DNA of 64,000 nt from an uncultured virus (IMG/VR IMGVR_UViG_3300037067_004615) (IMGVR_UViG_3300037067_004615); one strand, 5' to 3'. Positions 14,314-64,000 are shown, numbered from the stretch's first letter. The notes: generated by a model from the sequence alone, not told the origin. Program-made: numbers and translations.

Positions 14314-14465
14314 ACCCTTCTTGTGGGTTGGGACTTTCATTTTTAAAAAGCATACGTGTCTTACATGTTATCACTATCAGGAATTTAAACACTGTTCTTG
14401 CCGTGACAAAGTTGATGTTGTAAACTATTTAAAAAACTGTAACGATTGGATTGAGGCGTAAATTA

Positions 14466-17201
14466 ATGAGTGAATCTTTAGGTCAAAAATACGAACGAAT
14501 TTTATCAATGTGTGAAGTTGGAAAGCGTCATGGTGCTTTTACACAGATAGCTTGTCCTTGTACTGGTAATCATAAACATGGCGATAAAGAAAAATCTGCA
14601 AGTTTAGGGTTGCACTCAAACGGGATTTCGTTTAAATGCTTTGCAGGTTGTCAAACTGACGACTTTTTAAAAGTTTTAGGTCTAACTTATAAAGATTTGT
14701 TTCCAGATGATGAAAAAATCCCGACTAATATTTATACTTACCACAACGCCGATGGTAGTTATCATCACGACAAAGTGAAATATCGCAGACCCGATGGTAA
14801 AAAGGACTTTAGACAACGGACAATTGACGAAAATGGCAAAGTTAGTCCGACTGCACAAGTCGGTATCCCGTTCGCTTACCCTGAACTGAATGATGGAATC
14901 AAGCAAGGCAAACAGGTAGTTGTTTGCTATTCGCCCGATACTGAATTACTTACCCTTAACGGATGGGTAAGATTTGATAAATTAAAACACAATGAATTAG
15001 TAGCTCAATATCACACCGATAATTCTATTACATTTGTGCAACCATCTAATTACCAAATATATGATTATGATGGGGAAATTGTAAATATTTATAGTGAATT
15101 TTGTGATTTAATGGTTACACCTGACCATAGAATATGGGCACACCGTCGAAAATGTAATTCTAAGATATACACGGCTGATAATCTTATGGATAAATCAGGT
15201 GGTGTATTAATTCCAGTGTCAGGATATTGTAATACTAGATATAGCATATCACAACCGACCATAGATCAAGCTAAATTCATTACTGCATGGATAGCAGACG
15301 GATATAAACCGCCTAGGGGGATGTATAATTTTAATATTAAAAAAGAACGTAAGAAGTTAAGATTAAGGGAATTATTAAATAAATTAAGTATTAGATTTAA
15401 GGAAGTAAACTACCCTTCTTGTATGGAATGGTCACAATTTTGGATAAAACGTGAAGACGTCAAATTTTTAGAAGAATATTGTCCAGATAAAAAATGGACA
15501 TGGGATATGTTAAAATGGGATTTTGATATTAGACAGATAATGATAGAAGAATTAAAGTATTGGGACGGCGATCAATCAGGTAAGTGTGGTAGTAGATTAT
15601 TTACAGCAATAGAAGAACAAGCTAATATAGTAACATGTATGGGCGTATTAACAGGTTATGGTTCTATTATGCGTAATGATGATCATACAGGTAAACGTAC
15701 ATTTGTAGTGAATTTAAACCATAAAATTGAGAGATCAATTATTCATAAACCGATAAGGTCAAATTACAAAGGGAAAGTTTATTGCTGTACTGTTCCAACT
15801 AGTTTATTAGTGACACGTAGGAATGGTAAAACAGTTGTTGCGGGAAATTGCGAGGGAGAAAAAGATGCACTCACAGGTAAACTTTTAGGGTATGTTTCGA
15901 CTACAATGGGCGGTGCATCGGACTGGAAAGACGAATATAAGAACTTTTTTAAAGGTGCGAGTGTTATTTTAATCCCTGATAAAGATGACCCTGGTCTTAA
16001 ACACGCTAATAACGTGGTCGAATCGTTAAAATCGGTTGTAAAATCGCTTAAAATGTTGATTTTACCGATGGGGAAAGACCTTACAGAGTGGGTTGAGGCC
16101 GGAAATAGTGATTTAAAGTCGTTAATTGATAAAAATGCTATTGAATTAGTCACTACTAAGGGCGTTCCAGAGCCAGTTGTAAGAGAAATTTGTGGCGGTT
16201 ACGAACTTTATTGGATTGGTTTAGGTTTAAAAGTCACAGTTGACCACATCGAGGACGACGATTTAGCAGAATTATCAATTTACGAGAAAGAAAAACCTGT
16301 CTATATTTCAAGTTATAGGCTTTTATCAGTCGCTCATAAGGAATCTTTAGTCAAAGCGTTGAGTAAAATCAATAAAAGTTTTGACTGGTTTACAATCGTG
16401 AACCAAATTACCATCGAATGTCTATCTCGTATCCGTGATGGTGAACAAGTCGTCATGTTAAATTCTGAAATTGGTGCAAAACGTCCAGAATTTTTAGTTT
16501 TTCCTATGTTTGTTAAAAATAATGCCAATATTATCTACGGTGATAGAAGTTCGGCAAAAAGTTTGTTCATCATGTTAGTTACAATCATGGCAACTATGAC
16601 GTTTGATGCGTATGATTTAAAGATTTCAGGAGAACATACTATCCTTTGGTTGGATTGGGAAAATGATAAATATACCACTGGTTATCAAAAACAAAGAATA
16701 CTAAAAGGGTTTGGGTTGGAAAATATCGATATAGCATATTTGCACTTATCGAGAACGTTAGCAAGGTCAGTTTCTCAAATCCAGAGAAAAATTGCAGAAC
16801 TAGGTGCTGACATTGTTGTTATCGATAGTCTCGGTATTGCGGTTGGTGGAAACTTAAACGAATCAGAACCGGCGATAAACTTTTTTAACGCTTTAAATCA
16901 ACTTCCGGTAACGCCTTTAATCATAGCTCATACGGCAAAGGATAAAAATAATCCACGTAAAACAGTTTACGGTAACGCCTATTACGAAAATCTTGCTAGA
17001 TCGATTTGGGAAGCGAATAAAGTTCAAGAAAACGAATCAGACCAGTTAGTACTTTCACTTTTCCAACGGAAAGCACCACCTTTTAGTGGTTATCAAAAAC
17101 CGTTTGGGTTTAGATTTTTGTTCGATGGTGATAAAATCTATGTTGAAAAATGTGAAGCATCGCAGGATGAAAGAACTAAAGAGCATAAAGATGAACGATA
17201 G
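14466..17201 (+). CDS. Primase-helicase (Zn finger, TOPRIM, RecA-like AAA_25) containing an intein
   Basis: CPC...H...CFAGC, CEGEKD/PDKDDPG/KDLTEW TOPRIM motifs, GDRSSAKS, VVIDS, IAH. Confidence 0.85.
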   Translation: MSESLGQKYERILSMCEVGKRHGAFTQIACPCTGNHKHGDKEKSASLGLHSNGISFKCFAGCQTDDFLKVLGLTYKDLFPDDEKIPTNIYTYHNADGSYHHDKVKYRRPDGKKDFRQRTIDENGKVSPTAQVGIPFAYPELNDGIKQGKQVVVCYSPDTELLTLNGWVRFDKLKHNELVAQYHTDNSITFVQPSNYQIYDYDGEIVNIYSEFCDLMVTPDHRIWAHRRKCNSKIYTADNLMDKSGGVLIPVSGYCNTRYSISQPTIDQAKFITAWIADGYKPPRGMYNFNIKKERKKLRLRELLNKLSIRFKEVNYPSCMEWSQFWIKREDVKFLEEYCPDKKWTWDMLKWDFDIRQIMIEELKYWDGDQSGKCGSRLFTAIEEQANIVTCMGVLTGYGSIMRNDDHTGKRTFVVNLNHKIERSIIHKPIRSNYKGKVYCCTVPTSLLVTRRNGKTVVAGNCEGEKDALTGKLLGYVSTTMGGASDWKDEYKNFFKGASVILIPDKDDPGLKHANNVVESLKSVVKSLKMLILPMGKDLTEWVEAGNSDLKSLIDKNAIELVTTKGVPEPVVREICGGYELYWIGLGLKVTVDHIEDDDLAELSIYEKEKPVYISSYRLLSVAHKESLVKALSKINKSFDWFTIVNQITIECLSRIRDGEQVVMLNSEIGAKRPEFLVFPMFVKNNANIIYGDRSSAKSLFIMLVTIMATMTFDAYDLKISGEHTILWLDWENDKYTTGYQKQRILKGFGLENIDIAYLHLSRTLARSVSQIQRKIAELGADIVVIDSLGIAVGGNLNESEPAINFFNALNQLPVTPLIIAHTAKDKNNPRKTVYGNAYYENLARSIWEANKVQENESDQLVLSLFQRKAPPFSGYQKPFGFRFLFDGDKIYVEKCEASQDERTKEHKDER
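14925..15848 (+). mobile_element. Intein (308 aa) with LAGLIDADG-like core
   Basis: Starts CYSPDTELLT, block B VTPDHR, ends VYCCTVP...VVAGN before a Cys +1 residue; WIADG and WDGD endonuclease-like blocks. Confidence 0.9.
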
Positions 17202-23768: not shown

Positions 23769-23847
23769 TGGTGTATGGCGCAAATAGGCAGACGCAACAC
23801 GCTTAGAACGTGTAAAACTTAGAGTTCGACTCTCTATACACCAACCA
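23769..23847 (+). tRNA. tRNA-Leu(TAG), short variable loop
   Basis: Anticodon arm ACACG-CTTAGAA-CGTGT; ACCA end. Confidence 0.85.
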
Positions 23848-23850
23848 AAT

Positions 23851-23927
23851 GCTAGATTAGCCCAACGGTAGAGGCAATAGTTTCAAAAACTATAAAGGTA
23901 CAAGTTCAAATCCTGTATCTAGCACCA
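23851..23927 (+). tRNA. tRNA-Leu(CAA), short variable loop
   Basis: Anticodon arm ATAGT-TTCAAAA-ACTAT; ACCA end. Confidence 0.85.
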
Positions 23928-23929
23928 AT

Positions 23930-24005
23930 GCTATTGTAGACCAACGGCAGAGTCAATAGACTTAAAATCTATGTAGTGTGCGTCCGAATCGCACCAATAG
24001 CACCA
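23930..24005 (+). tRNA. tRNA-Leu(TAA), short variable loop
   Basis: Anticodon arm ATAGA-CTTAAAA-TCTAT; ACCA end. Confidence 0.85.
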
Positions 24006-33273: not shown

Positions 33274-34566
33274 TTAAATAGTATTAATATTTTTAATAAA
33301 ATCCTTAGTAAGGCTTCTCAGTCTTACAGGGTGTAACCCTACACCCACTACCCCATCCGATTTAAAATCTTCTGGGAATACTTTCCGACCTATATTGTAC
33401 GACCCGTTTACATCTGAATTTATCAAAATTCCATCTTTGCTTTTGTACAGTCCACGCTTAATTCGTCTACCACTGAAGTTGGTTTCCAACCCTTCGACGT
33501 GTTCTTTCGGTAGTTCGTCATTGTCAATAAAACTCGCTTTACTCGTGTAACTTTCTTCAGTTTGTAAGAAATCTATACCTACATCTTCACATTTGTAGGT
33601 CAGTTTTTGAATAAAACTTTCATACGGTATTCCTACAAACTTTTGATTATTAACGTGTCCGATGTTGATCTCACGTTTCCAGTCTTTGTTCTTTCCAATT
33701 ACCAGCGTGTTGAATTCATTTTCGAGACAGTATTCAACTACTTTTTTACTGTAAACGTGCATCCAATATCCTATTTTATTGTTACGCTTGCGAGTAAATC
33801 TTTCGAGTTCGTTTGACCAATCTTTGTCATTTTCTTTCTTTAACGTAGACTTTTTCTCGGATAAAACTTTATTGTAATATTGATTTATAGACTTTAAAGT
33901 TCCGCCCTTAATAACTGCCGGTTTTAGTCCGACGTTATTTGTTAAAGTTGCAAAATTTTCAAGCCCTAAATCAATGGCACAGATTCGATAGTTAAACGGC
34001 TTTTTGTCTACTTTCACGACATTGTAAACCACCTCCAATTTATAAAAACTTCCACACGGCACGATACTAATTTGTTGAATGTTTGGTACTTTAGTTTTTA
34101 ATTTATAACTATCGAATATCTTTGGAAATGTTATAAAACCATCTTTTAAATGGCATTGTTGATTTGTGAAAACCACAACCGACCGTCCAGTTTTCTTCGC
34201 TTTGTAATCAGGTAATTTAGGTCTGCCATTATACTTTTCAGGGTGTTTTGACCAATCTTTGATCGACTTAAAGAATGACCCCCAATTTTTATCAAGTAGT
34301 TTCAAAGTTTGTTGAGAAGTTTGAGCGGGTAACGCTTTATAATCAGGTTGATCTTTGTATAATGTTTTATTCAAACTATTGTATCGAATCCAGTTTCCAT
34401 TGTTAATAAATTCTTGTCGGATTAAATAGTTAGCGTAGTTGTAGAGATTTTTACATTTAAACGACAAATCATCCAGAATCGGATAAAGTTCATGGCCTTT
34501 ACCAATTTGATGACTCTCAATTCGTTTGTTAAAATTAAGATTCTGTTTCATCTTCGTTCTGTTCAA
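33274..34566 (-). CDS. tnpB: IS607 TnpB RNA-guided nuclease
   Basis: KNLYNYANY, AIDLG, EESYTSKAS, INSDVNGSYNI. Confidence 0.9.
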   Translation of the reverse strand: MNRTKMKQNLNFNKRIESHQIGKGHELYPILDDLSFKCKNLYNYANYLIRQEFINNGNWIRYNSLNKTLYKDQPDYKALPAQTSQQTLKLLDKNWGSFFKSIKDWSKHPEKYNGRPKLPDYKAKKTGRSVVVFTNQQCHLKDGFITFPKIFDSYKLKTKVPNIQQISIVPCGSFYKLEVVYNVVKVDKKPFNYRICAIDLGLENFATLTNNVGLKPAVIKGGTLKSINQYYNKVLSEKKSTLKKENDKDWSNELERFTRKRNNKIGYWMHVYSKKVVEYCLENEFNTLVIGKNKDWKREINIGHVNNQKFVGIPYESFIQKLTYKCEDVGIDFLQTEESYTSKASFIDNDELPKEHVEGLETNFSGRRIKRGLYKSKDGILINSDVNGSYNIGRKVFPEDFKSDGVVGVGLHPVRLRSLTKDFIKNINTI

Positions 34567-35143
34567 GTAGTTCTTTTAATTTAGATCGTTTTCTACTACT
34601 GTACAATTTCATCGAATAACAATGTAATAAACTAATAATTTCCTCAAATATTTCTTGACTATCTAATTTAACGCTTCCAACTTCAGACATTACTACGATA
34701 TCTGTATTATATTTATCAAATAAGTGTTTAAATAAATCAAACCCTACACGGCTCATTCGATCTTTATAAGTGATTATTACTCGCTGTACATCACCTTTAA
34801 GTACTTCATCTAATAATTTAAAGAAGTCTTCACGTTTATCAAAACTAATTCCACTTGCTATATCGGAATAAATCCCGTTTATTATGTATCCATTACTAAA
34901 ACAAAATTGCTTTAATAATTCGATTTGGTTTTCCAAGTCAGGTTTTTGTTTGGGTGTAGATACTCTGGCGTAAATATAAGTTTTACGTTCCACTCCGTCC
35001 ATGAAATATTTATAGACGCTTTCTTTATCGTAATTATACAAACCACTATTTAATTTAGTTGCTTTGATCGTCCCATTTTTAATATACTTACACAGAGTAG
35101 GTCTAGATATCCGCAGTAATTTTAAAACATCTTTCGCTTTCAT
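34535..35143 (-). CDS. tnpA: IS607 TnpA serine transposase
   Basis: N-terminal HTH, YARVST..QK.DL..Q, DIASG, YKDRMSR. Confidence 0.92.
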   Translation of the reverse strand: MKAKDVLKLLRISRPTLCKYIKNGTIKATKLNSGLYNYDKESVYKYFMDGVERKTYIYARVSTPKQKPDLENQIELLKQFCFSNGYIINGIYSDIASGISFDKREDFFKLLDEVLKGDVQRVIITYKDRMSRVGFDLFKHLFDKYNTDIVVMSEVGSVKLDSQEIFEEIISLLHCYSMKLYSSRKRSKLKELLEQNEDETES

Positions 35144-53471: not shown

Positions 53472-54612
53472 CTAAGTCAGAGAAGTGGTTAGAACTTTGT
53501 CGTGAGTTATATAATTCAGCATTAGCAGAGAGAATTGGCGCATATCGATATCAACGTGTTTCATTATCGGGTTATACTCAAATGTTAGAACTACCAGAAA
53601 TTAAAGACGCAATCCCTGAATACGAGACTATAAATTCTCAAGTTTTGCAACAGTGTTTAGACAGACTTCAAAAAGCGTTTCAAAGTTTCTTTCGCAGGGT
53701 AAAGAAATGTGAGAAGCCCGGATTCCCACGGTTTAAAGGATACGGACGATACAACTCATTCACGCTTAAAAACACAGGCTGGAAGTTAGAAGACAGATAC
53801 CTTTGGGTGAAGAATGTTGGTCGGTTTAAAATGAAACTGAGTAGACCAATTCAGGGTGAAATTAAAACCATCACGATTAACCGGACACCATCGGGAAAGT
53901 GGTATGCCTCATTTAGTTGTGGGAACATTGAACCTAAACCGTTGTCACCTAACGATAGAGTAGTTGGGATTGATGTAGGGATAAAATATTTTCTAGCAGA
54001 TTCAGAAGGCGTAGTAGTTGATAACCCTCACTATTTAAAAGAAAGTGAACGTAAATTAAGGGTGAGACAACGTAGATTATCAAGGCGTAAGAAAGGTTCA
54101 ATAGGGCGTAAAGAAGCCAAAGTTTTAGTAGCGAAGACTCATGAACACATAGTTAATCAACGTCAAGATTTTCAACATAAAAAAGCAAACGAATATATTG
54201 AAAATTATGGAACAATATGTTTTGAAAATTTAATGATAAAGAACATGGTAAGGAACAAACATTTAGCCAAAGCGATAAGTGACGCAAGTTGGGGAAGATT
54301 CTTCAATATGTTAAAGTACAAAGCAGAATACGCTGGTAGGATAGCGATTGAAGTGCCACCCCATAATTCAAGTCAGATATGTTCAGGGTGTGGACAAGTC
54401 GTTGCGAAATCGCTATCGGTCAGGACACATATCTGTCCATATTGTGGATTAGTGTTAGACCGGGATGTAAATGCGGCTAAAAATCATAAACACAGAGGTC
54501 TAGCGATACTAGACAAGTTGGTTAGGATAGAGCCATTAAGCGACAACGTAGGCATCGGCATAGGTCATGCGTAGCTTAAGAATCCCCCAAATTTATTTGT
54601 GGGGAGTGTCAA
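53459..54612 (+). mobile_element. 5'-truncated IS200/IS605-family tnpB element
   Basis: tnpB frame open from about 53459 without a start; right-end hairpin GAATCCCC...GGGGAGTGTCAA. Confidence 0.75.
53582..54574 (+). CDS. tnpB: IS605-type TnpB (N-terminus missing)
   Basis: PGFPRFK, GIDVG, CFENL, SQICSGCG, CPYCG, DRDVNAA. Confidence 0.85.
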   Translation: MLELPEIKDAIPEYETINSQVLQQCLDRLQKAFQSFFRRVKKCEKPGFPRFKGYGRYNSFTLKNTGWKLEDRYLWVKNVGRFKMKLSRPIQGEIKTITINRTPSGKWYASFSCGNIEPKPLSPNDRVVGIDVGIKYFLADSEGVVVDNPHYLKESERKLRVRQRRLSRRKKGSIGRKEAKVLVAKTHEHIVNQRQDFQHKKANEYIENYGTICFENLMIKNMVRNKHLAKAISDASWGRFFNMLKYKAEYAGRIAIEVPPHNSSQICSGCGQVVAKSLSVRTHICPYCGLVLDRDVNAAKNHKHRGLAILDKLVRIEPLSDNVGIGIGHA

Positions 54613-55866: not shown

Positions 55867-55895
55867 TTGACTAATATTAAATAGTGTGCTATGAT
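55867..55895 (+). promoter_or_regulatory. Sigma70 promoter for the intron-split gene
   Basis: TTGACT-17 nt-TATGAT with extended -10 TG. Confidence 0.75.
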
Positions 55896-55983: not shown

Positions 55984-56424
55984 ATGAAAATTACGGCAAT
56001 TGTTATGGTCATGGTCAGACTGATATTGCCGTTTGTCAATTAAAACCCGGCCTGCTCTGGAAGTAATTTCAGATGCATAGTCTCCCTAATGCGGTGAAGC
56101 CCTAACCTTTAATTAAGGTGGGTAATGCCGAGCCAAGCATAAAGTGGTTATATCCATTTTAAGGCGTGTGTAGAAAACTTACAGGAGATACCCTGAATAA
56201 ATTATATTTATAAGGGTAAAGACAAGTTGCAAGATACGTACCGTAAGGTATGACACAAAAATGGGTTTGTTATCGGTGCCAACTTAATCTCACCTATTAA
56301 TACGGCGACTAGTGTCATCGTGACTCCTACCTATTCCCAGGCGGTTAGTTCATTGTCCGCTCTTTTGACCCTTATCTTTGTGGTTATACTCATTATTATG
56401 GGGGTTAAATCAATCGAAGCCTAG
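55984..56424 (+). CDS. Intron-split small hydrophobic protein, putative major coat protein (join 55984-56015, 56262-56424; 64 aa)
   Basis: Predicted spliced product MKITAIVMVMVGFVIGANLISPINTATSVIVTPTYSQAVSSLSALLTLIFVVILIIMGVKSIEA; the exon 2 frame is closed by TGA 56251 and has no early ATG. Confidence 0.65.
56016..56261 (+). ncRNA. Group I intron with non-canonical P7 and predicted omega-A
   Basis: P AATGCGGTGAA, Q AATGCCGAGCC, R GTAGAAAACTT, S AAGACAAGTTGC, P3 TCTCC/GGAGA, P8 TACCCT/AGGGTA, GUAA loops on P2 and P9. Confidence 0.8.
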
Positions 56425-56430
56425 TACCAT

Positions 56431-56468
56431 AAGGGGAGTTTTGAACGAAAGTTCGGCTCCCCTTTCTT
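56431..56468 (+). terminator. Intrinsic terminator
   Basis: AAGGGGAG...CTCCCCTT stem with a GAAA-capped inner hairpin followed by TCTT. Confidence 0.65.
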
Positions 56469-56498
56469 CTAACAAAAAATATAATGCAAGGCAATTAA

Positions 56499-56678
56499 AT
56501 GGCGACACAAAAGAAAGTATTAAAAAAGAACGAACGGAAGCTAAAAGGGAAGTGGCAACCGATCAGAAAAGGTGGGCTTATAAATCGTGGAATAGACTTA
56601 GAACATTCATATCATTATCAAGAAAGTCGAGAAGAAAAATTAAAAAGGTTAGGTGTGATAAATGGCAAGAAAAGCTAG
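56499..56678 (+). CDS. Basic small protein (59 aa)
   Basis: MATQKKVLKKNERKLKGKWQPIRKGGL..., read by hand. Confidence 0.55.
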   Translation: MATQKKVLKKNERKLKGKWQPIRKGGLINRGIDLEHSYHYQESREEKLKRLGVINGKKS

Positions 56679-56742
56679 AAAATCAACAAGAAAAACCAGA
56701 AAGAGTACAAGGAAATCAAGAAGAAGTTCAAAGCGTAGATAA
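56662..56742 (+). CDS. Protamine-like peptide (26 aa)
   Basis: MARKARKSTRKTRKSTRKSRRSSKRR; AGGTG RBS. Confidence 0.7.
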   Translation: MARKARKSTRKTRKSTRKSRRSSKRR

Positions 56743-56749
56743 GGGCTAA

Positions 56750-57070
56750 ATGAAAGTCAAAATTCGGAAAGTTTATTACAAAAGAATTAAGAGCGGGCGT
56801 GACCCTGTGAGGTTTGAGGCGGTACAACCGAATGGGTTAAATACCGATGTTCATGCTGTAGTGAAAATTGACCCAATTTTAAAAAAGTATCCTGATTTAA
56901 GAAAACCAATGCTACAACATGAGAAACATGAGTTGGTGATGTGGGGCAAGGGTCACGCTGACGCTCATTCTCACGCAAAAAGAAAAGAACCAAAACGTAC
57001 ACGATGTATCGGTGGGGTTAAAGGTTTCTGGTCGGAAATTAAAAAGCGTGAATATAAAAGGAGAAAGTAG
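56750..57070 (+). CDS. Basic protein with HExHE (zincin-like) motif
   Basis: MLQHEKHEL...AHSHA. Confidence 0.55.
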   Translation: MKVKIRKVYYKRIKSGRDPVRFEAVQPNGLNTDVHAVVKIDPILKKYPDLRKPMLQHEKHELVMWGKGHADAHSHAKRKEPKRTRCIGGVKGFWSEIKKREYKRRK

Positions 57071-57071
57071 T

Positions 57072-58595
57072 ATGGTAGTGAAAAGGAAAACTTGCAAAAA
57101 GACTGCTACTAAATCCCGTAAGGGTAAGGGCAAATGGTTAATGGGGAAACGGAATGTGCATATTAACGTTAGAGGGTCAAGATATACTACATTACCAGAA
57201 GGTACAAAAACTGCGTTAGATGCCCCTATGCCTTATGGTATAAAACCGATTAAACGTAGAAGGAAGTAGTGTGTTTATATGCGAAAGCATAGAGTGTTAT
57301 TAAGTAGAATTTGGAAACAGGATGGTAAATCTAAGACTTGTGTTGCAAAATTCCATCACGAAGTTCAAAAAAGGAAAGGGGATTCAAAATGAAAAAAAGA
57401 AATGTTCATAGCAAAGTTAAGGGGCGAAACGTCCGCTCAAGGGTTGACGGACTGAAACTTAACTTTAAGGGTGGATTTTTAAAAGGTTCTCAAAAATCAA
57501 GCAAAATGGGATTATTTTAGGGTAATCAAATGAATAATTATGTGAAACGGAATTGGTTGAAAAGTGGTGGGATTAAAATAGATTATAAGGGTGGGTTTTT
57601 GCCAAAACAATCTGTAAGGCGGAAACGTGGTGGTTGGATTGACAGCGATGGAACAGACCAACCGGAAACTGGAAAGTTTACTGATTATGTGGGTAGTTTT
57701 AAAGACTACATTTAAGGGTGTGATGTATGGTTAAACGTAAGGTCGCTAGAAAAACAAATGGTCGTTGGGGTTTTCCTATTGGCGATTCAAAAGGCATTGC
57801 ATATAAGGAAAGTCGGGAATCTAAACGTAAACGTATCATGACAGAACGTACCGAAAAAGCTAAACTTAAGTCTGACTTAAAGGAACAAAAACGATTGGAT
57901 AAACTTCAAGCGTTAAAACGGCAAACTGAAGTTGCTGAAGCGAAATATAAACTAAGAACCACTGAGCGAAAAGCAATGTTAGCACACCCATTGGGGCGAA
58001 TTGGTTTAAGTTCGTCGTTTGGAAAAGGCAAAAAACGTCGTAAAATAAGTTGGATTTAAAAGGAAGGTGTTAAAATGGCAAAGCGTACTAAAAGATCAGT
58101 CAAGTCTAAGGGGTACAAAGTTCCAGAAAAGGGTTTTCTATCTATGGTTTCAGATGTCAAGAAAAAGAATTGGTCACCTAAGTGGAAAATTTAAGGTAGC
58201 AAAATGCGAATCTTTCAATTAACGGACTATTGCTTTTGGGCGTAGTCCGTTTTTTGAAAAACTAGGTGGATGGGAATGGTTAAGAATATAGTCTGCCCTG
58301 AGTGTAAATCTAAGAATATTCATAAGTATGGTCACATGAAAAAACGGATTAAAGGCACAAAGAAGGTTGTCTTAGTACAACGTTTCCGGTGCTATACTTG
58401 TTTGCATCAATTCGGGCGGAAAGGAGAATAACTATGTCACCTGTTATCGTCAGAAAAATTCGAGGGAAGCGTTTCTGGACTGTGAAAGAAAAACGTAAAG
58501 GTGGTCGGATTTTTGCTCGTAAAACTACAAAAAAACGAGCATTAGCGCAACTTCGCTTGCTACGTGGGTTGGCACATGGTATGATTAAAAGGTAA
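57072..58595 (+). other. Run of small K/R-rich genes and one zinc ribbon
   Basis: ORFs 57072-57269, 57279-57392, 57389-57520, 57530-57715, 57727-58059, 58075-58194, 58276-58431 (CPEC...CYTC), 58434-58595. Confidence 0.65.
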
Positions 58596-58600
58596 GAGAT

Positions 58601-60211
58601 ATGAAGATTAAGTTTATTAAAATCGCATACGTATTTTTGATGGTGGTACTTTTAACAGTACCTACATTATTATATAGCGTACCTATTTCTGCTGTCACAA
58701 CTCCTACTATTCAGGATAGTCTAACTACTGCAAGTACAGGGGGTGATTCAGCGTCAATCTATGGTAATAACTATGGTGCGATGCAATTTACAGCGTCATC
58801 TACTTATTCGGTTAACTATATTGACGTAATGCTCAAGAAATCCGGCGACCCTGGTGACATTGAAGCATCAATCGTAACTGCAACTGCGGGTGTACCAACA
58901 GGAACAACTGATTCGATTACGTTTGATTCAATCGATGGCGGTACAATCAGTGACGGTTATTCATGGTGTAGATTTACTCCATCAAGTACAAGCGAAACAG
59001 CAGTCGTTAGTGGTACTCAGTACGCAATTATCATAAAGGCAAAGGGTGGCGATGCTACTCACTATATTGCGTGGCAAGTTGATACAGATGGTGGTGTAGG
59101 TACAATCAATTACTCTCATTCTGCCGATGGTGGTGAAACATGGACAACCGATTCACCGAAAGATGGTTTATTTAAGGTCTATGGTACTGATGTGTTATCC
59201 ATTGTGAGTGCAAAGGAATTTGACGATTATATAACAACCGACGATATGATTTTTACCATAGAATACATTAATACTTACCCGCCTTATTTTACTAATAATT
59301 CAGATGCGTCTGCAACATTTTATCTTCAACTAAGGACTTCCGACAATACTGTTATTATAGCTCAAACACCTATGAAAGCGTGGGGTGATAGGCCAGGTTC
59401 AATTTATATAGGTACAAGTGTTGCCGCTGGCATTACTGCTGGTAGCCAATTATATATCAGGATGGTATTAGCAAGTAATGCGGCTGTTTATGAAGAATAT
59501 CAATTAGCGTCATCTGATTGGTTGGGTAAAGCAAGCCCATTATCCGCACATACATCAAACTTTTTATTGAATGTATATGATAAAATTACAGGACAGAGTG
59601 AACATAGTACTCTTGACCAATGGGTTAGAAGTACGGCGGATAATATAGACGATTATAATTATGTGAATTATGGAACAACTACAAGCCTGACAACTTATTT
59701 ACAAAATAAAGGTCAAGTTTTAGCACAGGCTACAGAAGGCGATTCTATATTCTTAAATGGTATACCGTCTTTAAACTATGTTCGACCAAATTTGTTTGAG
59801 GTTGTAACTGCCGAAGCGTCAATCGAGACAACTGATTGGGATAACACTTATGTAACTGATTCAGATACAGTATTTGCTAATAATGTAGGGACAACAGTTT
59901 CGGGTGATATGGCGGCATTAGGAAATTTATTCGGTATAACAGCTACCGCTGAAGATGCTGATAATAATGAACCATCAATAAGCGTGGCTCGTAAAACAAT
60001 GGGTACTGTTATTATGTTAGTCGCAGTGGCTATGGCATTTTTCGGGTTATTTGCTGTTGGGGTTGGTTTTGCACCTGTGTCTTTGTTCCTATCTATGCCT
60101 TTACTTTTTTGGGGTGCACAGATCAGGGCTATCGATATCAGATTGATCGGGTTGGTTATATTTATTCTGTTCTTTATCTGTATTAGAAAATATATATGGG
60201 TTGAGGGGTAA
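58601..60211 (+). CDS. Exported beta-rich protein with C-terminal transmembrane helices (putative virion/surface protein)
   Basis: Signal-peptide-like N-terminus, T/S/G-rich beta domains, about three terminal hydrophobic helices. Confidence 0.7.
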   Translation: MKIKFIKIAYVFLMVVLLTVPTLLYSVPISAVTTPTIQDSLTTASTGGDSASIYGNNYGAMQFTASSTYSVNYIDVMLKKSGDPGDIEASIVTATAGVPTGTTDSITFDSIDGGTISDGYSWCRFTPSSTSETAVVSGTQYAIIIKAKGGDATHYIAWQVDTDGGVGTINYSHSADGGETWTTDSPKDGLFKVYGTDVLSIVSAKEFDDYITTDDMIFTIEYINTYPPYFTNNSDASATFYLQLRTSDNTVIIAQTPMKAWGDRPGSIYIGTSVAAGITAGSQLYIRMVLASNAAVYEEYQLASSDWLGKASPLSAHTSNFLLNVYDKITGQSEHSTLDQWVRSTADNIDDYNYVNYGTTTSLTTYLQNKGQVLAQATEGDSIFLNGIPSLNYVRPNLFEVVTAEASIETTDWDNTYVTDSDTVFANNVGTTVSGDMAALGNLFGITATAEDADNNEPSISVARKTMGTVIMLVAVAMAFFGLFAVGVGFAPVSLFLSMPLLFWGAQIRAIDIRLIGLVIFILFFICIRKYIWVEG

Positions 60212-60212
60212 T

Positions 60213-62684
60213 ATGCGCTTTAATCGATTGAATATTGTATCAATAATTTTACTGATAGTATTGTTGGTTGGAATGATAGTAATACCTATATATGGGTTAA
60301 CGCCAACGCTATTAGGTCGAATATCTGGTTCAGGTGCACCTAATTATTTATATGGGGCATCAGATGTATTCGTATCAGGTAGTTATGCTTACGTGACTGC
60401 ATATTTCGATGATTCTTTTGTTGTTATAGATGTTTCTACACCATCATCACCAACATTTGTAAGTAAATTATCAGGAAGTGGTTCACCTAATTATTTAAAT
60501 GGTGCATCATCTATTTACGTTGTGGGTAATTATGCATATGTGACATCTGCAATTGATGATGCATTAACAATTATTGATATTAGTACACCATCATCACCAA
60601 CATTTGTAAGTAAATTATCAGGAAGTGGTGCACCTAATTATTTAGATCAAGCAAGAAATGTTTTTGTTTCGGGAAATTATGCATATGTAGCTTCTTGGGG
60701 TTATAGTGCATTAACTATTGTCGATATATCAACACCTGCTACGCCAACGTTATCTGGAGTTATAAGAGGTTCAGGTTCACCTAATTATTTAGGTGGTGCA
60801 TCGAGTGTTTTTAAGTCCGGTAATTATGCTTATGTTGCAGCTTCTAGTGACAGTTCCCTAACTGTTATCGATGTAACTAATCCGGCTGTGCCTACTTTTG
60901 CGAGTAAGATATCAGGGGGTGGTTCACCTAATTATTTACAATATCCTAGAAGTGTGTTCATTTCTGGGAATTTTGCATATGTATCAGTAGATGTTGATTT
61001 TACCCTAACTGTGATTGATATTACAAACCCGATTGTACCATCGTTTGAGGGGTATGTGTATAGCAGTACGTATTTAAAGGGTGTAACTGATATGTATGTT
61101 TCGGGTAATTTCGCGTATATCACAGCAGTTGATTCATATTGTTTGGCAGTGGTAAATATATCAACACCATCGTCACCTATAGTTGATGGTGGTGTAGTTA
61201 ATGGCGGTATCCGATCTTATCAAAGTGGAGTGTTTTCTGTTGGTGACTATACTTATGTAACAGAATCATATGGTAATGCTTTGAGTATATATGATGCAGT
61301 ATTAAAAGCCCCTGCTATTACAACAACTGCGGCTAGTAATATCACAACTGCATCGGCAAGATTAAATTCTAACCTTACAGAAGATGGTAATGATACTTGT
61401 GAAGTACAATTCGGGTATGATACAGTTTCTCGTGCTGTATTTAACGACTATGCCAATAAAACTGGGCTTGCAGGCGCATGGACTCAAGGACAAAACCCAT
61501 ATGTAGATATTAGTAGCCTTTTAATGAACACAACTTATTATTTTAGAGCACAAGTAAAAAATGATTATTCAACAGTAACAAGTAGTGTTGAGTTGTCATT
61601 TACTACATCTTCTGTCCCTACAGTTCCAACTAATCTTCAAGCCTATCCTTTAAGTGATTCAATCTATCTAACATGGACTAAAGGGAGTGGTTCAAACAAT
61701 ACATACATTTACTATAAGACTTCACCTTATACGTCATCAAACACAAACTTAATTACGAATGGTTCGTTTGAAACAGCAGACCCGCCGACAGGATGGACGC
61801 TAGCTGGTGCTGGTGCAACATTCTCACGTAGTAGTACACAATTCAAAATAGGTAGCTATAGTGGAAAATTAATTCGAGGTGGTGCGGATTGTGCTGTAAC
61901 ACAAGATTTAACCACAACTGAAAACGGAGAAACATTAACGTTCGGTTGTTGGGTATATGCTACAGTAGCGAATAGAGCGTATATCTACATCGCAGATGGG
62001 ACAACTACTACAACTTCAATTGCACATACAGGGGTTGCAGGGTGGGAATGGTTAGAAATTACACAAACCATAAATGATGGGGCAACTCATGTTTATTTAG
62101 GTTGTCAGGTTAAAACAGGTGATACAACTGCTTATTTTGATCGTGCTTTTTGTATAGAGGGGACTGTAATTCCGGCAGAAGGAACATTGGTCTATTCTAG
62201 CTCGGATAGTACATATTCTCATACAGGATTAACACTAGGTGTTACGTATTACTACGCACTTGTTGGTCAAAGTGGTGATTTATTCAGTGATACATATGCT
62301 ACTATATTAATGACTACTACTGCTAGTGGGTTAACACCTACAGGGTTTGATTCATTTACTCAACCTGGTGGTAGCGATTATGATATATCTAACCCGAATA
62401 TTGCAGTATTAGAAAATTTAGGGCCTTTTTATGGTTTGATAAATGGTTTTATAGATAGTTGGGGTATGGCAAGGGGTAACGCATGGGCCGGTATTGCAGC
62501 ATTTTTAATTGTAATAATCGCATTGGTCGTGTATATTCGTTCGGGTAGTATTTCTGGTTCACTAGTGGTAGTATTAATATGTTTGATTATTACTTATTTC
62601 TTGAAAATTACGTCCGGTTGGTGGATTTTCTTTGCACTAGCTGGTGTGTTGGGTTCGTTTGCATTACCCAAAAGGGAGGTATAG
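60213..62684 (+). CDS. Membrane-anchored adhesin: LVIVD beta-propeller, FN3-like and CBM-like domains
   Basis: About seven YAYV...L.IIDIS.P..P repeats, TTYYFRA and P.NL FN3 motifs, NLITNGSFE domain, C-terminal TM helices. Confidence 0.8.
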   Translation: MRFNRLNIVSIILLIVLLVGMIVIPIYGLTPTLLGRISGSGAPNYLYGASDVFVSGSYAYVTAYFDDSFVVIDVSTPSSPTFVSKLSGSGSPNYLNGASSIYVVGNYAYVTSAIDDALTIIDISTPSSPTFVSKLSGSGAPNYLDQARNVFVSGNYAYVASWGYSALTIVDISTPATPTLSGVIRGSGSPNYLGGASSVFKSGNYAYVAASSDSSLTVIDVTNPAVPTFASKISGGGSPNYLQYPRSVFISGNFAYVSVDVDFTLTVIDITNPIVPSFEGYVYSSTYLKGVTDMYVSGNFAYITAVDSYCLAVVNISTPSSPIVDGGVVNGGIRSYQSGVFSVGDYTYVTESYGNALSIYDAVLKAPAITTTAASNITTASARLNSNLTEDGNDTCEVQFGYDTVSRAVFNDYANKTGLAGAWTQGQNPYVDISSLLMNTTYYFRAQVKNDYSTVTSSVELSFTTSSVPTVPTNLQAYPLSDSIYLTWTKGSGSNNTYIYYKTSPYTSSNTNLITNGSFETADPPTGWTLAGAGATFSRSSTQFKIGSYSGKLIRGGADCAVTQDLTTTENGETLTFGCWVYATVANRAYIYIADGTTTTTSIAHTGVAGWEWLEITQTINDGATHVYLGCQVKTGDTTAYFDRAFCIEGTVIPAEGTLVYSSSDSTYSHTGLTLGVTYYYALVGQSGDLFSDTYATILMTTTASGLTPTGFDSFTQPGGSDYDISNPNIAVLENLGPFYGLINGFIDSWGMARGNAWAGIAAFLIVIIALVVYIRSGSISGSLVVVLICLIITYFLKITSGWWIFFALAGVLGSFALPKREV

Positions 62685-62688
62685 TCGT

Positions 62689-63027
62689 ATGCGAATGTCG
62701 CTCGTCATCGCTTTGACCATGCTATATATTTGTGGCATGATGATATCAAATACTTGTGAACAGCAGACTTTATTAGGGACAGGTGACTTAACTTTAGTCC
62801 AACAATTGATAACGCCACCTGTATCTGATTGGTCTAATCCTGCGGCGGCCATAGGTTCATTAATTGCTATCCCCATATATTACATTATACTCATAGTAAG
62901 GATAGGTACTTTTGATTTTGCTTTCTTTTATGGTACGTGGGAAGTTTTACGACTTGTATTCTGTGCAATTGGGGTAGGTATGACTGTTGGTTGGATAACT
63001 ATTTTACGTGGTGTCCATTCCCAATAA
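62689..63027 (+). CDS. Membrane protein
   Basis: Several hydrophobic helices; GGAGGT RBS. Confidence 0.7.
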   Translation: MRMSLVIALTMLYICGMMISNTCEQQTLLGTGDLTLVQQLITPPVSDWSNPAAAIGSLIAIPIYYIILIVRIGTFDFAFFYGTWEVLRLVFCAIGVGMTVGWITILRGVHSQ

Positions 63028-63043
63028 TTTAAGGAAGTGACTT

Positions 63044-63247
63044 ATGTATCGAAGTGCGATGGTGCTTGGTGCAATTATAATTGGTGGTGTAATATTTCTT
63101 GCGATGTTTCCATCTATGAGAACTGGGATGTCGATTGATACTACAGGTTGGATACCGTTGTTTGCTACGATGGTTAGATTCCTACCCTATGTTCTAATTG
63201 TATTTATTGTGCTGTGGTTTTTAGCTAAATCTCGAAGGGGGAATTAA
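63044..63247 (+). CDS. Small two-helix hydrophobic protein (coat-protein-like paralog)
   Basis: Hydrophobic helix-FPS-polar turn-LFATMVRFLPYVLIVFIVLWFL-basic tail. Confidence 0.65.
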   Translation: MYRSAMVLGAIIIGGVIFLAMFPSMRTGMSIDTTGWIPLFATMVRFLPYVLIVFIVLWFLAKSRRGN

Positions 63248-63250
63248 TAA

Positions 63251-64000
63251 ATGGTAATTTCTGGCAGACCTAGTGCATCTACTACAAAAACAGTATCATC
63301 TAAACAAGCAGGTGTAATTTCAGGTGTACCATCAAGTGATGTTGACACATCGAAGTACGTTTTGTTAGCAGATGGAACTTATGTTGATAAGTCAGCGTTT
63401 GAACAGTTACCTGAAGATGTGCAAAGAAAAGGTTTAACCGATGGATTAGATGCTTTACAAACGACTTTGCAATCAAAGCAGTCAGACTATAAAGACGCTA
63501 TGAAAATGCTTGAACCGTGGACTGATAAAGACGGTAAAGTTGACTTAGTAAAAGCGGTAAAAGAAGGTGTCGATACTGGAAGATTAAAAGATGTGGGTAT
63601 TGTTGATGAAGCATCTTTGAATAAAGTACAAAAATATCTAAGTGCAGTCGAAAAAGTAAAAGTTGAAATGCATCATGGTCAAGGATGGGGCGGTGGTTGG
63701 GAAGGTGGTTCTGTTAGTGGGATTATAAATGTCTTAGATAAAAATGGGAATATATCAGGTAGTTCTATTATATCGTATTATAGCCAAACTAAAGATGATG
63801 AAACCGTCAAGGATTTAGGGTATGATCTTGAACAAATAAAAAAGATTGTTAAGCGCATAGAAAGACGTAAAGAAGAAAGGCGTGAAGCAAAAGATGTTGG
63901 TGCAACCGCAGAAGAAATTGCGACTGTAGTTTATGATCCTGTTACCAATGCACCTATTGTACCTCCGAAACTTCCGAAAGCGGTGGCTGTTCCTGTTACT
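63251..64000 (+). CDS. Large hypothetical protein, runs off the window end
   Basis: Frame starting MVISGRPSAS... appears open to the window edge. Confidence 0.65.
   Translation, partial: MVISGRPSASTTKTVSSKQAGVISGVPSSDVDTSKYVLLADGTYVDKSAFEQLPEDVQRKGLTDGLDALQTTLQSKQSDYKDAMKMLEPWTDKDGKVDLVKAVKEGVDTGRLKDVGIVDEASLNKVQKYLSAVEKVKVEMHHGQGWGGGWEGGSVSGIINVLDKNGNISGSSIISYYSQTKDDETVKDLGYDLEQIKKIVKRIERRKEERREAKDVGATAEEIATVVYDPVTNAPIVPPKLPKAVAVPVT

Follow-up and report, generated by a model that had tools for sequence, protein, structure and literature searches.

A putative virion module with spindle-virus capsid-like hairpin proteins in a large uncultured virus

What kind of particle does the uncultured virus IMG/VR IMGVR_UViG_3300037067_004615 build? 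The question is raised by one stretch of its 118,547-bp contig, of which we analysed 64 kb (the window; all statements on the window cover these 64 kb). At positions 55,984 to 63,247 an initial annotation had proposed a bacterial virus in which a spindle-like or enveloped-virus-like structural module stands in place of head and tail genes. We observe in this region a set of genes that is conserved in metagenomic relatives and that encodes two small hairpin proteins with remote profile similarity to the capsid proteins of spindle-shaped viruses. Judged from the sequence, the region from 55.9 to 64 kb is, on balance, probably the opening section of a virion-building module that belongs to a non-tailed, membrane-assembling double-stranded DNA (dsDNA) virus with a hairpin capsid protein of the His1 VP21/SSV1 VP1 type.

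The evidence that carries this reading comes from two open reading frames (ORFs):

63044..63247, + strand: 67-aa two-helix hairpin protein, second capsid-protein-like gene (helix, polar turn, helix, basic tail)
56254..56424, + strand: open frame of 56 aa, capsid-protein-like (end of helix 1, Pro turn, polar loop, helix 2, charged tail)

ORF 63044 has the succession of helix, polar turn, helix and charged tail that had been claimed for it, and both ORF 63044 and the 56254-56424 frame show the two-segment layout with a polar loop that serves as a criterion for major capsid proteins (MCPs) of the His1/SSV1 type (~70-80 aa). We compared them by hhalign to a capsid reference alignment consisting of His1 VP21, the MCP of BLv25 (a Halorubrum spindle-shaped virus) and SSV1 VP1 and VP3. 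The frame 56254-56421 scores 28.3 with a probability of 76.6 % (E 2e-5 over 46 columns), a score that 0 of 120 segment shuffles reach. This frame ranks first among the 115 hydrophobic frames of the window and ORF 63044 ranks second (score 17.9). The two small proteins that had been likened to spindle-virus capsid proteins are thus the best two that the window offers.

ORF 63044 is 61-70 % identical to its counterparts in the loci L001 and L002. The hairpin gene follows that of a conserved membrane protein (family F1, described below), and this position defines a family of 15 distinct relatives plus ORF 63044, with sizes of 62-86 aa. The resulting 16-sequence family matches the capsid alignment with a probability of 94.6 % (E 7e-8, score 41.1). 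Column shuffles within segments give a mean score of 14.8 and a maximum of 26.8, with 0 of 100 reaching 41.1, and the reversed alignment scores 19.4. Two other small membrane protein families, F7 and F1, reach 2.8 % and 1.2 % against the same profile. Profile-profile similarity to known MCPs is also the criterion of published work, with HHpred probabilities of 94.9-98.8 % in one study (PMC9796341). Most of the family signal is due to the 13 distant members (96 %). The window subgroup together with L039 reaches 60 % (E 9e-5) and is linked to the other members at 70 % (E 4e-5).

Searches with the hairpin family profile give a similar picture. Its best match among the 34 ORFs of His1 is VP21 and, among 26 ORFs of BLv25 and 14 of SSV1, the best is the annotated BLv25 MCP, followed by VP3. 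In a decoy test, 7 of 104 ORFs with two transmembrane (TM) segments scored at least as high as VP21; each of the 7 immediately follows an F1 or adhesin gene, and they are therefore probably members of the family, not decoys. In the ESM Atlas a cluster labelled 'His1 virus capsid protein' is among the three nearest to ORF 63044 (score 0.82), which we take as a lead only. The small proteins might instead have been holins or pilins. No such family matched: the best holin-type matches have E values of 0.21-3.2 and concern distant relatives only, and no pilin or inovirus coat family is among the matches listed. A tblastn search with a hairpin protein gave no match in GenBank phages.

Between and around the two hairpin genes lie the larger members of the block:

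58601..60211, + strand: 536-aa membrane-anchored adhesin-like protein, family A1/A3, with relatives in 52 metagenome loci
60201..62684, + strand: 827-aa surface protein with LVIVD beta-propeller repeats (Pfam LVIVD E 1.3e-45, 6 stretches) and C-terminal hydrophobic helices
62689..63027, + strand: 112-aa membrane protein with about three hydrophobic helices, family F1, in 26 loci, the most conserved small gene of the module
63251..64000, + strand: first 250 aa of a larger protein that continues past the end of the window, with weak BLASTP similarity to 1000-1300-aa proteins of the relatives

The adhesins with signal peptide and TM anchor that had been noted here are indeed present. An AlphaFold 2 model of the 536-aa protein (predicted local distance difference test 78) runs from a signal helix through two beta-sandwich domains and a helical stalk to three C-terminal helices, which in the model we read as membrane-spanning. 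Foldseek matches it to fibre and baseplate proteins of phages, to sugar-binding domains and to a streptococcal adhesin domain, with TM-scores that are low throughout (0.13-0.28). Seven relatives of this protein were found in a large protein collection, one of them on a 107-kb contig. No match was obtained in IMG/VR with the 536-aa protein, the 250-aa protein or the alignment A1, nor in GenBank phages with the nucleotides 58601-62684 (blastn) or the 536-aa protein (tblastn). The second surface protein, with its LVIVD repeats, has related ORFs in 29 loci. In its repeat region, a contig at a depth of 57 (versus ~8) joins 60696 to 60849 with 5 other letters between; this join is either a repeat-number variant or a related surface protein of another genome.

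At E<=1e-3, 827 of 1.84 billion cluster representatives match family F1, and the lineage is therefore widespread though unnamed. The ORF at 63251 is 35 % identical over 78 aa to a protein of L028 (E 2e-5 against 11 subjects), and a search for a longer version of it found no match.

The relatives show these genes in a recurrent order. In the clustered ORFs of the loci, the module starts in some cases with a TM or coiled-coil protein and 2-4 tandem F7 hairpins, continues with a small basic protein and a 1000-2500-aa protein placed before the adhesins or after the hairpin, and then has the two large surface proteins, F1 and the two-helix hairpin. After the hairpin come a 106-aa protein, a ~196-aa TM protein, a ~180-aa protein and, in loci that extend far enough, a P-loop ATPase of 219-366 aa, and at the end a winged-helix protein, a CmcI-type methyltransferase and glycosyltransferases. 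Of the module, the window contains the stretch that begins with the first hairpin gene and breaks off early in the large protein. Hidden Markov models of the families F2, F4, F8, F13, F14, F15, F21, F22 and F33 gave no match between 52 and 64 kb of the window.

Two further components were seen in the relatives. F7, a two-helix protein of 77-122 aa whose end is conserved and which carries N-x-S/T sequons, is present in 2-4 tandem copies and heads the module in one subgroup (L019 4788-5665; L033 8634-9521; L037 1236-2520; L024, L028 and L031). We rejected F7 as a capsid-like or window family on its 2.8 % against the capsid profile and on the lack of a match in the window. Giant ORFs of 2428 to ~2500 aa lie near the module of some relatives (L074 4570-11856, a 2428-aa ORF of the genome G402; L006 13674-21167; L011 13674-21143), and their smaller relatives of 850-1850 aa have a conserved C-terminal 100-190 aa in common.

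The ATPase of the relatives matches Pfam Zot (PF05707) in 3 of 7 members (best E 1.2e-9), the L002 protein reaching 20.5 bits versus a cut-off of 20.3, and it matches the solved Zot N-domain 2r2a with an E value of 0.017. It differs from the pI/Zot proteins of filamentous phages in being soluble, with no TM or periplasmic part, as in the ATPases of wyrdviruses and SSV1 (B251). A tblastn search with the L002 ATPase found no match in GenBank phages. Among 401 Dehalococcoidia genomes the ATPase profile matches 19 at E<=1e-3, all weakly apart from the genome that contains L053. This relative is located in a Dehalococcoidia metagenome-assembled genome (MAG) and is the sole match among species genomes, with the caution that binning can err. 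One of the weak matches, in G388, was rejected; that genome has 63 % GC and no recognisable module nearby.

No terminase, portal, HK97 capsid, tail or lysin had been recognised in the 64 kb, and our scans confirm this for the window. Not one of 111 distinct ORFs matches a head, packaging, tail or lysis family of PHROGs, save the 827-aa LVIVD protein with a weak match to 'virion structural protein' (E 0.0024), and 0 of 55 ORFs match such a family of Pfam. We extended the PHROGs search to 102 flanking proteins from 25 relative loci and found 0 head, tail or terminase proteins; the matches are to primases, a polymerase, HNH nucleases, a Cas4-like nuclease, methyltransferases and a 'Zot-like toxin'. 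One relative could be read whole. G402 is an IMG/VR record of 54,316 bp, classed as a provirus with a CheckV estimate of 100 % completeness, that carries the module together with ribonucleotide reductase, helicase, radical-SAM and ERCC4 genes. None of its 45 ORFs matches a terminase, portal or capsid PHROG, and six-frame searches for TerL_ATPase, Terminase_6N and Phage_portal found none.

We propose that the two paralogous hairpin proteins (the interrupted gene at 55984-56424 and ORF 63044) would form the shell, that small basic proteins may coat the DNA, and that the two large membrane-anchored beta-sandwich and beta-propeller proteins would act as receptor-binding spikes. The three-TM protein F1 and the large downstream protein may be additional components of the membrane or the virion. 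If filamentous phages and spindle-shaped archaeal viruses are a guide, DNA loading would take place at the cell membrane, where the particle would leave by extrusion or budding and the cell would not be lysed. The spindle-like or enveloped bacterial virus of the initial annotation is thus partly supported by the match of the hairpins to the capsid profile, the adhesins, the lack of head-tail genes in the window, the conservation of the module in metagenome loci and the pI/Zot-like ATPase in relatives, while its spindle or enveloped shape and its bacterial host are parts that we infer. If true, this reading would extend a capsid lineage that is treated as a mark of archaeal viruses to further hosts and larger genomes, and would link that lineage to recently proposed budding viruses of Chloroflexota. 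It would also define a sizeable group of viruses, to judge by the F1 cluster representatives, for which our scans with hallmark families make no structural call.

A number of observations weigh against this reading. The proteins of the window themselves are linked to the capsid profile only moderately (60 % and 76.6 %), and ORF 63044 with its L001 and L002 counterparts reaches 3.2 % when L039 is left out. Pfam His1_capsid (PF25665) at E<=10 matches 0 of 18 hairpin members and does not match the 56254 frame, while the positive controls His1 VP21 (1.5e-37) and BLv25 MCP (7.7e-23) are matched; PHROGs likewise gives no capsid family for the hairpin proteins. Scores of 21-25 are seen between unrelated membrane segments. 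Short hydrophobic proteins are prone to false profile matches, and for this reason we rate the homology of the hairpin family to spindle-virus capsid proteins as likely, and the membership of the two window genes in that lineage as probable. The first hairpin gene could be a broken copy rather than a spliced gene. The ATPase gene is not in the 64-kb window and would lie past base 64000, and a head-tail module could sit in the remaining 54.5 kb of the contig. The last ORF of G402 runs to the end of the record, which makes its completeness uncertain. Its 2428-aa ORF has a sub-threshold match to Phage_capsid (HK97; 14.3 bits versus a cut-off of 24.2, E 4.9e-4) and a match to a 'minor tail protein' PHROG (E 1.4e-5) that overlies fn3 repeats. 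Finally, ESM Atlas clusters like F1 are labelled 'Uroviricota' and 'Archaea 53%'.

Two alternatives come next, and we rate them about equally. The main one is an ordinary, if divergent, tailed phage with its head, tail and lysis genes in the other 54 kb, the region being an accessory membrane or surface block that the infected cell would express, for example for superinfection exclusion, surface remodelling or lysogenic conversion. We consider it unlikely. The rest of the window does look like a typical phage early/replication region with a tRNA array, the ectodomain fold of the 536-aa protein resembles phage fibre and baseplate proteins, look-alike clusters bear Uroviricota taxon labels, and there are the weak HK97 and tail-family matches in the giant ORF of G402. 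However, the fold matches lie at the low TM-scores given above and concern generic beta-sandwiches. BLv25 (L076, OQ850971.1) is filed by GenBank under Uroviricota; Caudoviricetes despite its spindle name and annotated MCP, and such labels on metagenomic look-alikes are therefore no evidence for tails. The flanking proteins of the relatives and the 54-kb G402 contain no head-tail family save the two weak matches. Moreover the block is the most conserved part across the relatives and lies at the expected start of the late operon, and both its capsid-profile similarity and the pI-like ATPase of the relatives argue against this alternative.

The other explanation, which we hold to be no less doubtful, keeps the same spindle-type or pleomorphic module and places it in an archaeal host, for example a methanogen; the genome would then be that of a very large archaeal spindle-type virus. 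LVIVD repeats are common in Methanosarcina surface proteins, which counts for an archaeal host, as does the one Atlas cluster like F1 labelled 53 % Archaea. N-x-S/T sequons are conserved in the loops of distant hairpin relatives, and a TTTTATAAAA stretch is located upstream of the first gene (55984). The spindle-virus capsid proteins described so far also come from archaeal viruses, every known carrier being archaeal according to two sources (PMC9796341; bioRxiv 10.1101/2021.07.29.453957). Against an archaeon, the window encodes lambda-O-like, DnaC-like, T7-type primase-helicase, Mu-Gam-like and YopX genes, MCM, Orc1/Cdc6 and PCNA are absent among the 55 window ORFs scanned with Pfam, and the hairpin proteins of the window are free of N-x-S/T sequons. 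A long variable arm in tRNA-Tyr is a bacterial trait, and the tRNA-Tyr of the window has one. Two hairpins followed by T-runs resemble terminators, and the sole match among species genomes lies in the Dehalococcoidia MAG. The replication genes, the tRNA-Tyr arm, the terminator-like hairpins and the MAG match lead us to favour a bacterium as the host.

The weakest alternative is that the element is not a virus, in the sense of a plasmid-like or integrative element using membrane proteins, adhesins and a Zot-like ATPase for cell-to-cell DNA transfer or vesicle spread, and we regard it as very improbable: no capsid family is recognised at a curated threshold, the block is rich in membrane proteins with an ATPase of a DNA-pumping superfamily and IMG/VR classes G402 as a provirus, but library scans of the window and the relatives brought up neither a relaxase nor a VirB4- or VirD4-type protein, the block is surrounded by phage-like genes, and the profile similarity is to virion proteins of three spindle viruses.

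How does the non-tailed, membrane-assembling virus that we favour compare with known systems? Its hairpin proteins share with His1 VP21 and SSV1 VP1 and VP3 a size of ~55-85 aa, two hydrophobic helices and the occurrence of two paralogs per genome. In both groups a Pro directly follows helix 1, the loop is polar and rich in S/T, helix 2 opens with a hydrophobic-Pro motif and the tail is charged. Unlike the spindle-virus MCPs, the proteins of the window carry no N-x-S/T sequon and one copy is interrupted by ~220 nt, and the genome measures ~118 kb versus 13-15.5 kb for His1, BLv25 and SSV1. In Pleolipoviridae and Plasmaviridae the virions are of the membrane vesicle type, their spikes being anchored at the C-terminus; these viruses also have small membrane proteins, a conserved NTPase and genomes of 7-17 kb, and Plasmavirus L2 has a bacterial host.

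The nearest described architecture is that of the wyrdviruses of Asgard archaea, which we compared by their described features only. As described, their module combines one or two paralogs of a His1-like MCP with an adhesin, five conserved genes, a pI-like ATPase that has no TM domain and a sugar O-methyltransferase (bioRxiv 10.1101/2021.07.29.453957). The relatives of the window have the same order, with about five genes between adhesins and ATPase and then the CmcI-type methyltransferase. The one wyrdvirus size given there is 15.6 kb and some wyrdviruses have family-B polymerases, whereas the window has a lambda-type replication set and 8 tRNAs.

The nearest bacterial case, again compared by description, are the IME1 elements of Dehalococcoides, which a preprint presents as 21-28 kb dsDNA elements without tailed-phage hallmarks, proposed to be budding or filamentous, with filaments seen in viral fractions (bioRxiv 10.64898/2026.09.15.751708). 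IME1 elements encode a pI-like ATPase, several small TM proteins structurally like SSV1 VP1, adhesin-like proteins with signal peptide and TM anchor, YopX and a primase-helicase (bioRxiv 10.64898/2026.09.15.751708). The window shares with this description small TM proteins likened to VP1, adhesins, YopX and primase-helicase, and through its relatives the pI-like ATPase and, with L053, the location in a Dehalococcoidia MAG. IME1 elements differ in their integration by a tyrosine recombinase, their size and the position of the ATPase upstream of the TM genes. What sets the genome apart from wyrdviruses and IME1 as described there is its size of ~118 kb, a lambda-type set of replication genes, tRNA genes in an array, a row of basic proteins and a capsid-like gene with an interruption; in the open-access and bioRxiv literature we came across no description of a similarly large element that carries this module. 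The initial annotation had spoken of an undescribed pairing of host domain and morphotype; this is no longer fully true, given the budding or filamentous dsDNA viruses that the IME1 preprint proposes in Dehalococcoidia (bioRxiv 10.64898/2026.09.15.751708).

A fuller version of our reading is conceivable, and we put it forward tentatively. It would be a bacterial virus of >100 kb with lambda-type replication and its own tRNAs, a His1/SSV1-type capsid (spindle, tubular or pleomorphic) and pI-like extrusion, with one capsid gene expressed via a new self-splicing intron; such a virus would be the first bacterial member of the lineage and would have by far its largest genome.

The interruption of the first hairpin gene deserves a closer look, since, if this is a capsid gene, it would allow RNA splicing, or some other means of repair, to be tested in a gene for a virion protein. 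In addition to the 56254-56424 frame, the locus consists of:

55867..55895, + strand: sigma-70-like promoter site TTGACT-17-TATGAT with upstream TG (motif scan)
55984..56040, + strand: candidate first coding piece, ATG and 18 mostly hydrophobic codons (19 aa), then stop
56041..56253, + strand: intervening structured segment, possible intron, with stops in all three frames
56431..56465, + strand: terminator-like hairpin and T-rich run (RNAfold -19.7 kcal/mol)

The 56254-56424 frame has no start codon and only the end of helix 1; the missing parts would come from the upstream ATG frame. The two pieces share a reading frame across a gap of ~210-225 nt, the ends of the possible intron being placed at 56000-56040 (5') and 56263-56270 (3') rather than fixed. 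For 37 in-frame joins, the 5' cut is preceded by U and the 3' cut by G. The best of them (5' cut 56026-56040, 3' cut 56264-56270) give 65-71 codons and a probability of 70-80 % against the capsid profile, while the 55984-56040 piece alone does not match that profile. No Shine-Dalgarno-like motif was found upstream of the 55984 frame.

The intervening segment is structured to some degree. The fold of 56020-56330 is somewhat better than that of shuffles (z -2.6) and contains GNRA-capped hairpins. A second, more abundant contig, present in two metagenomes, keeps the stem 56190-56217 with a loop 11 nt shorter and also keeps the 3' end of the coding frame. The 26-nt core of the segment has no exact match in IMG/VR, and a match at 56226-56256 resembling a repeat of clustered regularly interspaced short palindromic repeats (E 2.8) was dismissed as chance.

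The gene had been described as encoding a spliced 64-aa protein with its own strong promoter and terminator. Its two in-frame pieces are real. Splicing fared less well: a Rfam scan of 401 nt around the segment gave no family at E<=10, group I intron RF00028 included, and no convincing P1 pairing for group I-type splicing was found. The promoter-like site and the terminator-like hairpin are both present, but 12 kb contain 48 consensus promoter sites versus 45.6 expected from shuffles, so that the site at 55867-55895 is weak evidence taken alone. A self-splicing intron of an undescribed type, another recoding route or a broken gene would each fit the sequence. Just upstream, a 67-aa ORF at 55637-55840 matches only the middle of 219-288-aa HNH/zinc-finger ORFs within the module of L019 and L028 (43 % over 46 aa) and is probably a homing endonuclease remnant.

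The interval between the first hairpin gene and the adhesin gene is filled with small, mostly basic ORFs:

56499-56678, 56750-57070, 57072-57269, 57389-57520, 57530-57715, 57727-58059 and 58075-58194, + strand: seven small basic ORFs, 20-33 % K or R
58213..58259, + strand: terminator-like hairpin, then TTTTTT (inverted repeat I2; RNAfold -22.8 kcal/mol)
58270..58431, + strand: 53-aa zinc-ribbon protein, CxxC...CxxC, with a 72 % identical ORF in L001
58434..58595, + strand: 53-aa basic protein, 19 K or R, with a 71 % identical ORF in L001 and a AAAGGAGA motif upstream

Counted from the translations, there are nine small basic ORFs in all, of 39-110 aa with K or R at 20-36 % of the residues, and AGGAG-like motifs lie upstream of several of them. 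They had been put forward as DNA-condensing-type peptides comparable to SSV1 VP2. The nine basic ORFs stand, while the likeness to VP2 does not: for the seven ORFs of the first line we detected no similarity to one another, to SSV1 VP2 or to the basic family F2 of the relatives.

Overall the window has a G+C content of 35 % and a phage-like look. Its other parts are:

bases 1-26.6 kb, + strand: early/replication genes, with a lambda-O-like initiator, a DnaC-like loader and a Toprim/DnaB-type primase-helicase (Pfam, PHROGs)
bases 1-26.6 kb, + strand: further genes, with a Mu-Gam-like protein (Sipho_Gp157), a helicase, three methyltransferases, RNA ligase, MazG and YopX
23.4-24.1 kb: eight tRNA genes
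middle of the window, - strand: ~25 kb of small genes, mostly of no recognised family
from 52.5 kb, + strand: resumption of plus-strand genes, the region under study

Within the tRNA array, the genes with Leu anticodons UAG, CAA and UAA (23769-24005) have short variable arms and lengths of 76-79 nt, a long variable arm being the normal state of tRNA-Leu. Both tRNA-Ser and the tRNA-Tyr have long arms, and an encoded CCA end is drawn in 6 of the 8 tRNA genes.

The closest link of the window to any named phage is a radical-SAM-like protein (306-1298), which along its entire length shares 53 % identity with a protein of Bacteroides phage Versailles and which matches phrog_24834 at E 9e-116. As hints to the host, this protein (53 %, Bacteroides phage) and TnpB (<=46 %, mixed taxa) were set aside as uninformative. 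In the 916-aa primase-helicase ORF (14451-17201), residues 92-467 match both thymidylate synthase and ribonucleotide reductase PHROGs (E 3e-7 to 4e-8), which suggests an intein or homing-endonuclease insert common to these enzyme families.

Two mobile elements were also found. A TnpB-only insertion sequence of the IS605 type occupies 53563-54612 (ORF 53582-54574); its ends coincide with loose contig ends, and one contig joins 53607 to 54567. The right end of this element occurs in 10-11 contigs of the source metagenome and 5 of a second one, at a depth of 365 versus ~9 for the virus; the community, and possibly the host, therefore carries it in multiple copies. On the minus strand, an IS607-like pair at 33274-35143 combines a serine recombinase (Resolvase and HTH_17) with a 430-aa TnpB.

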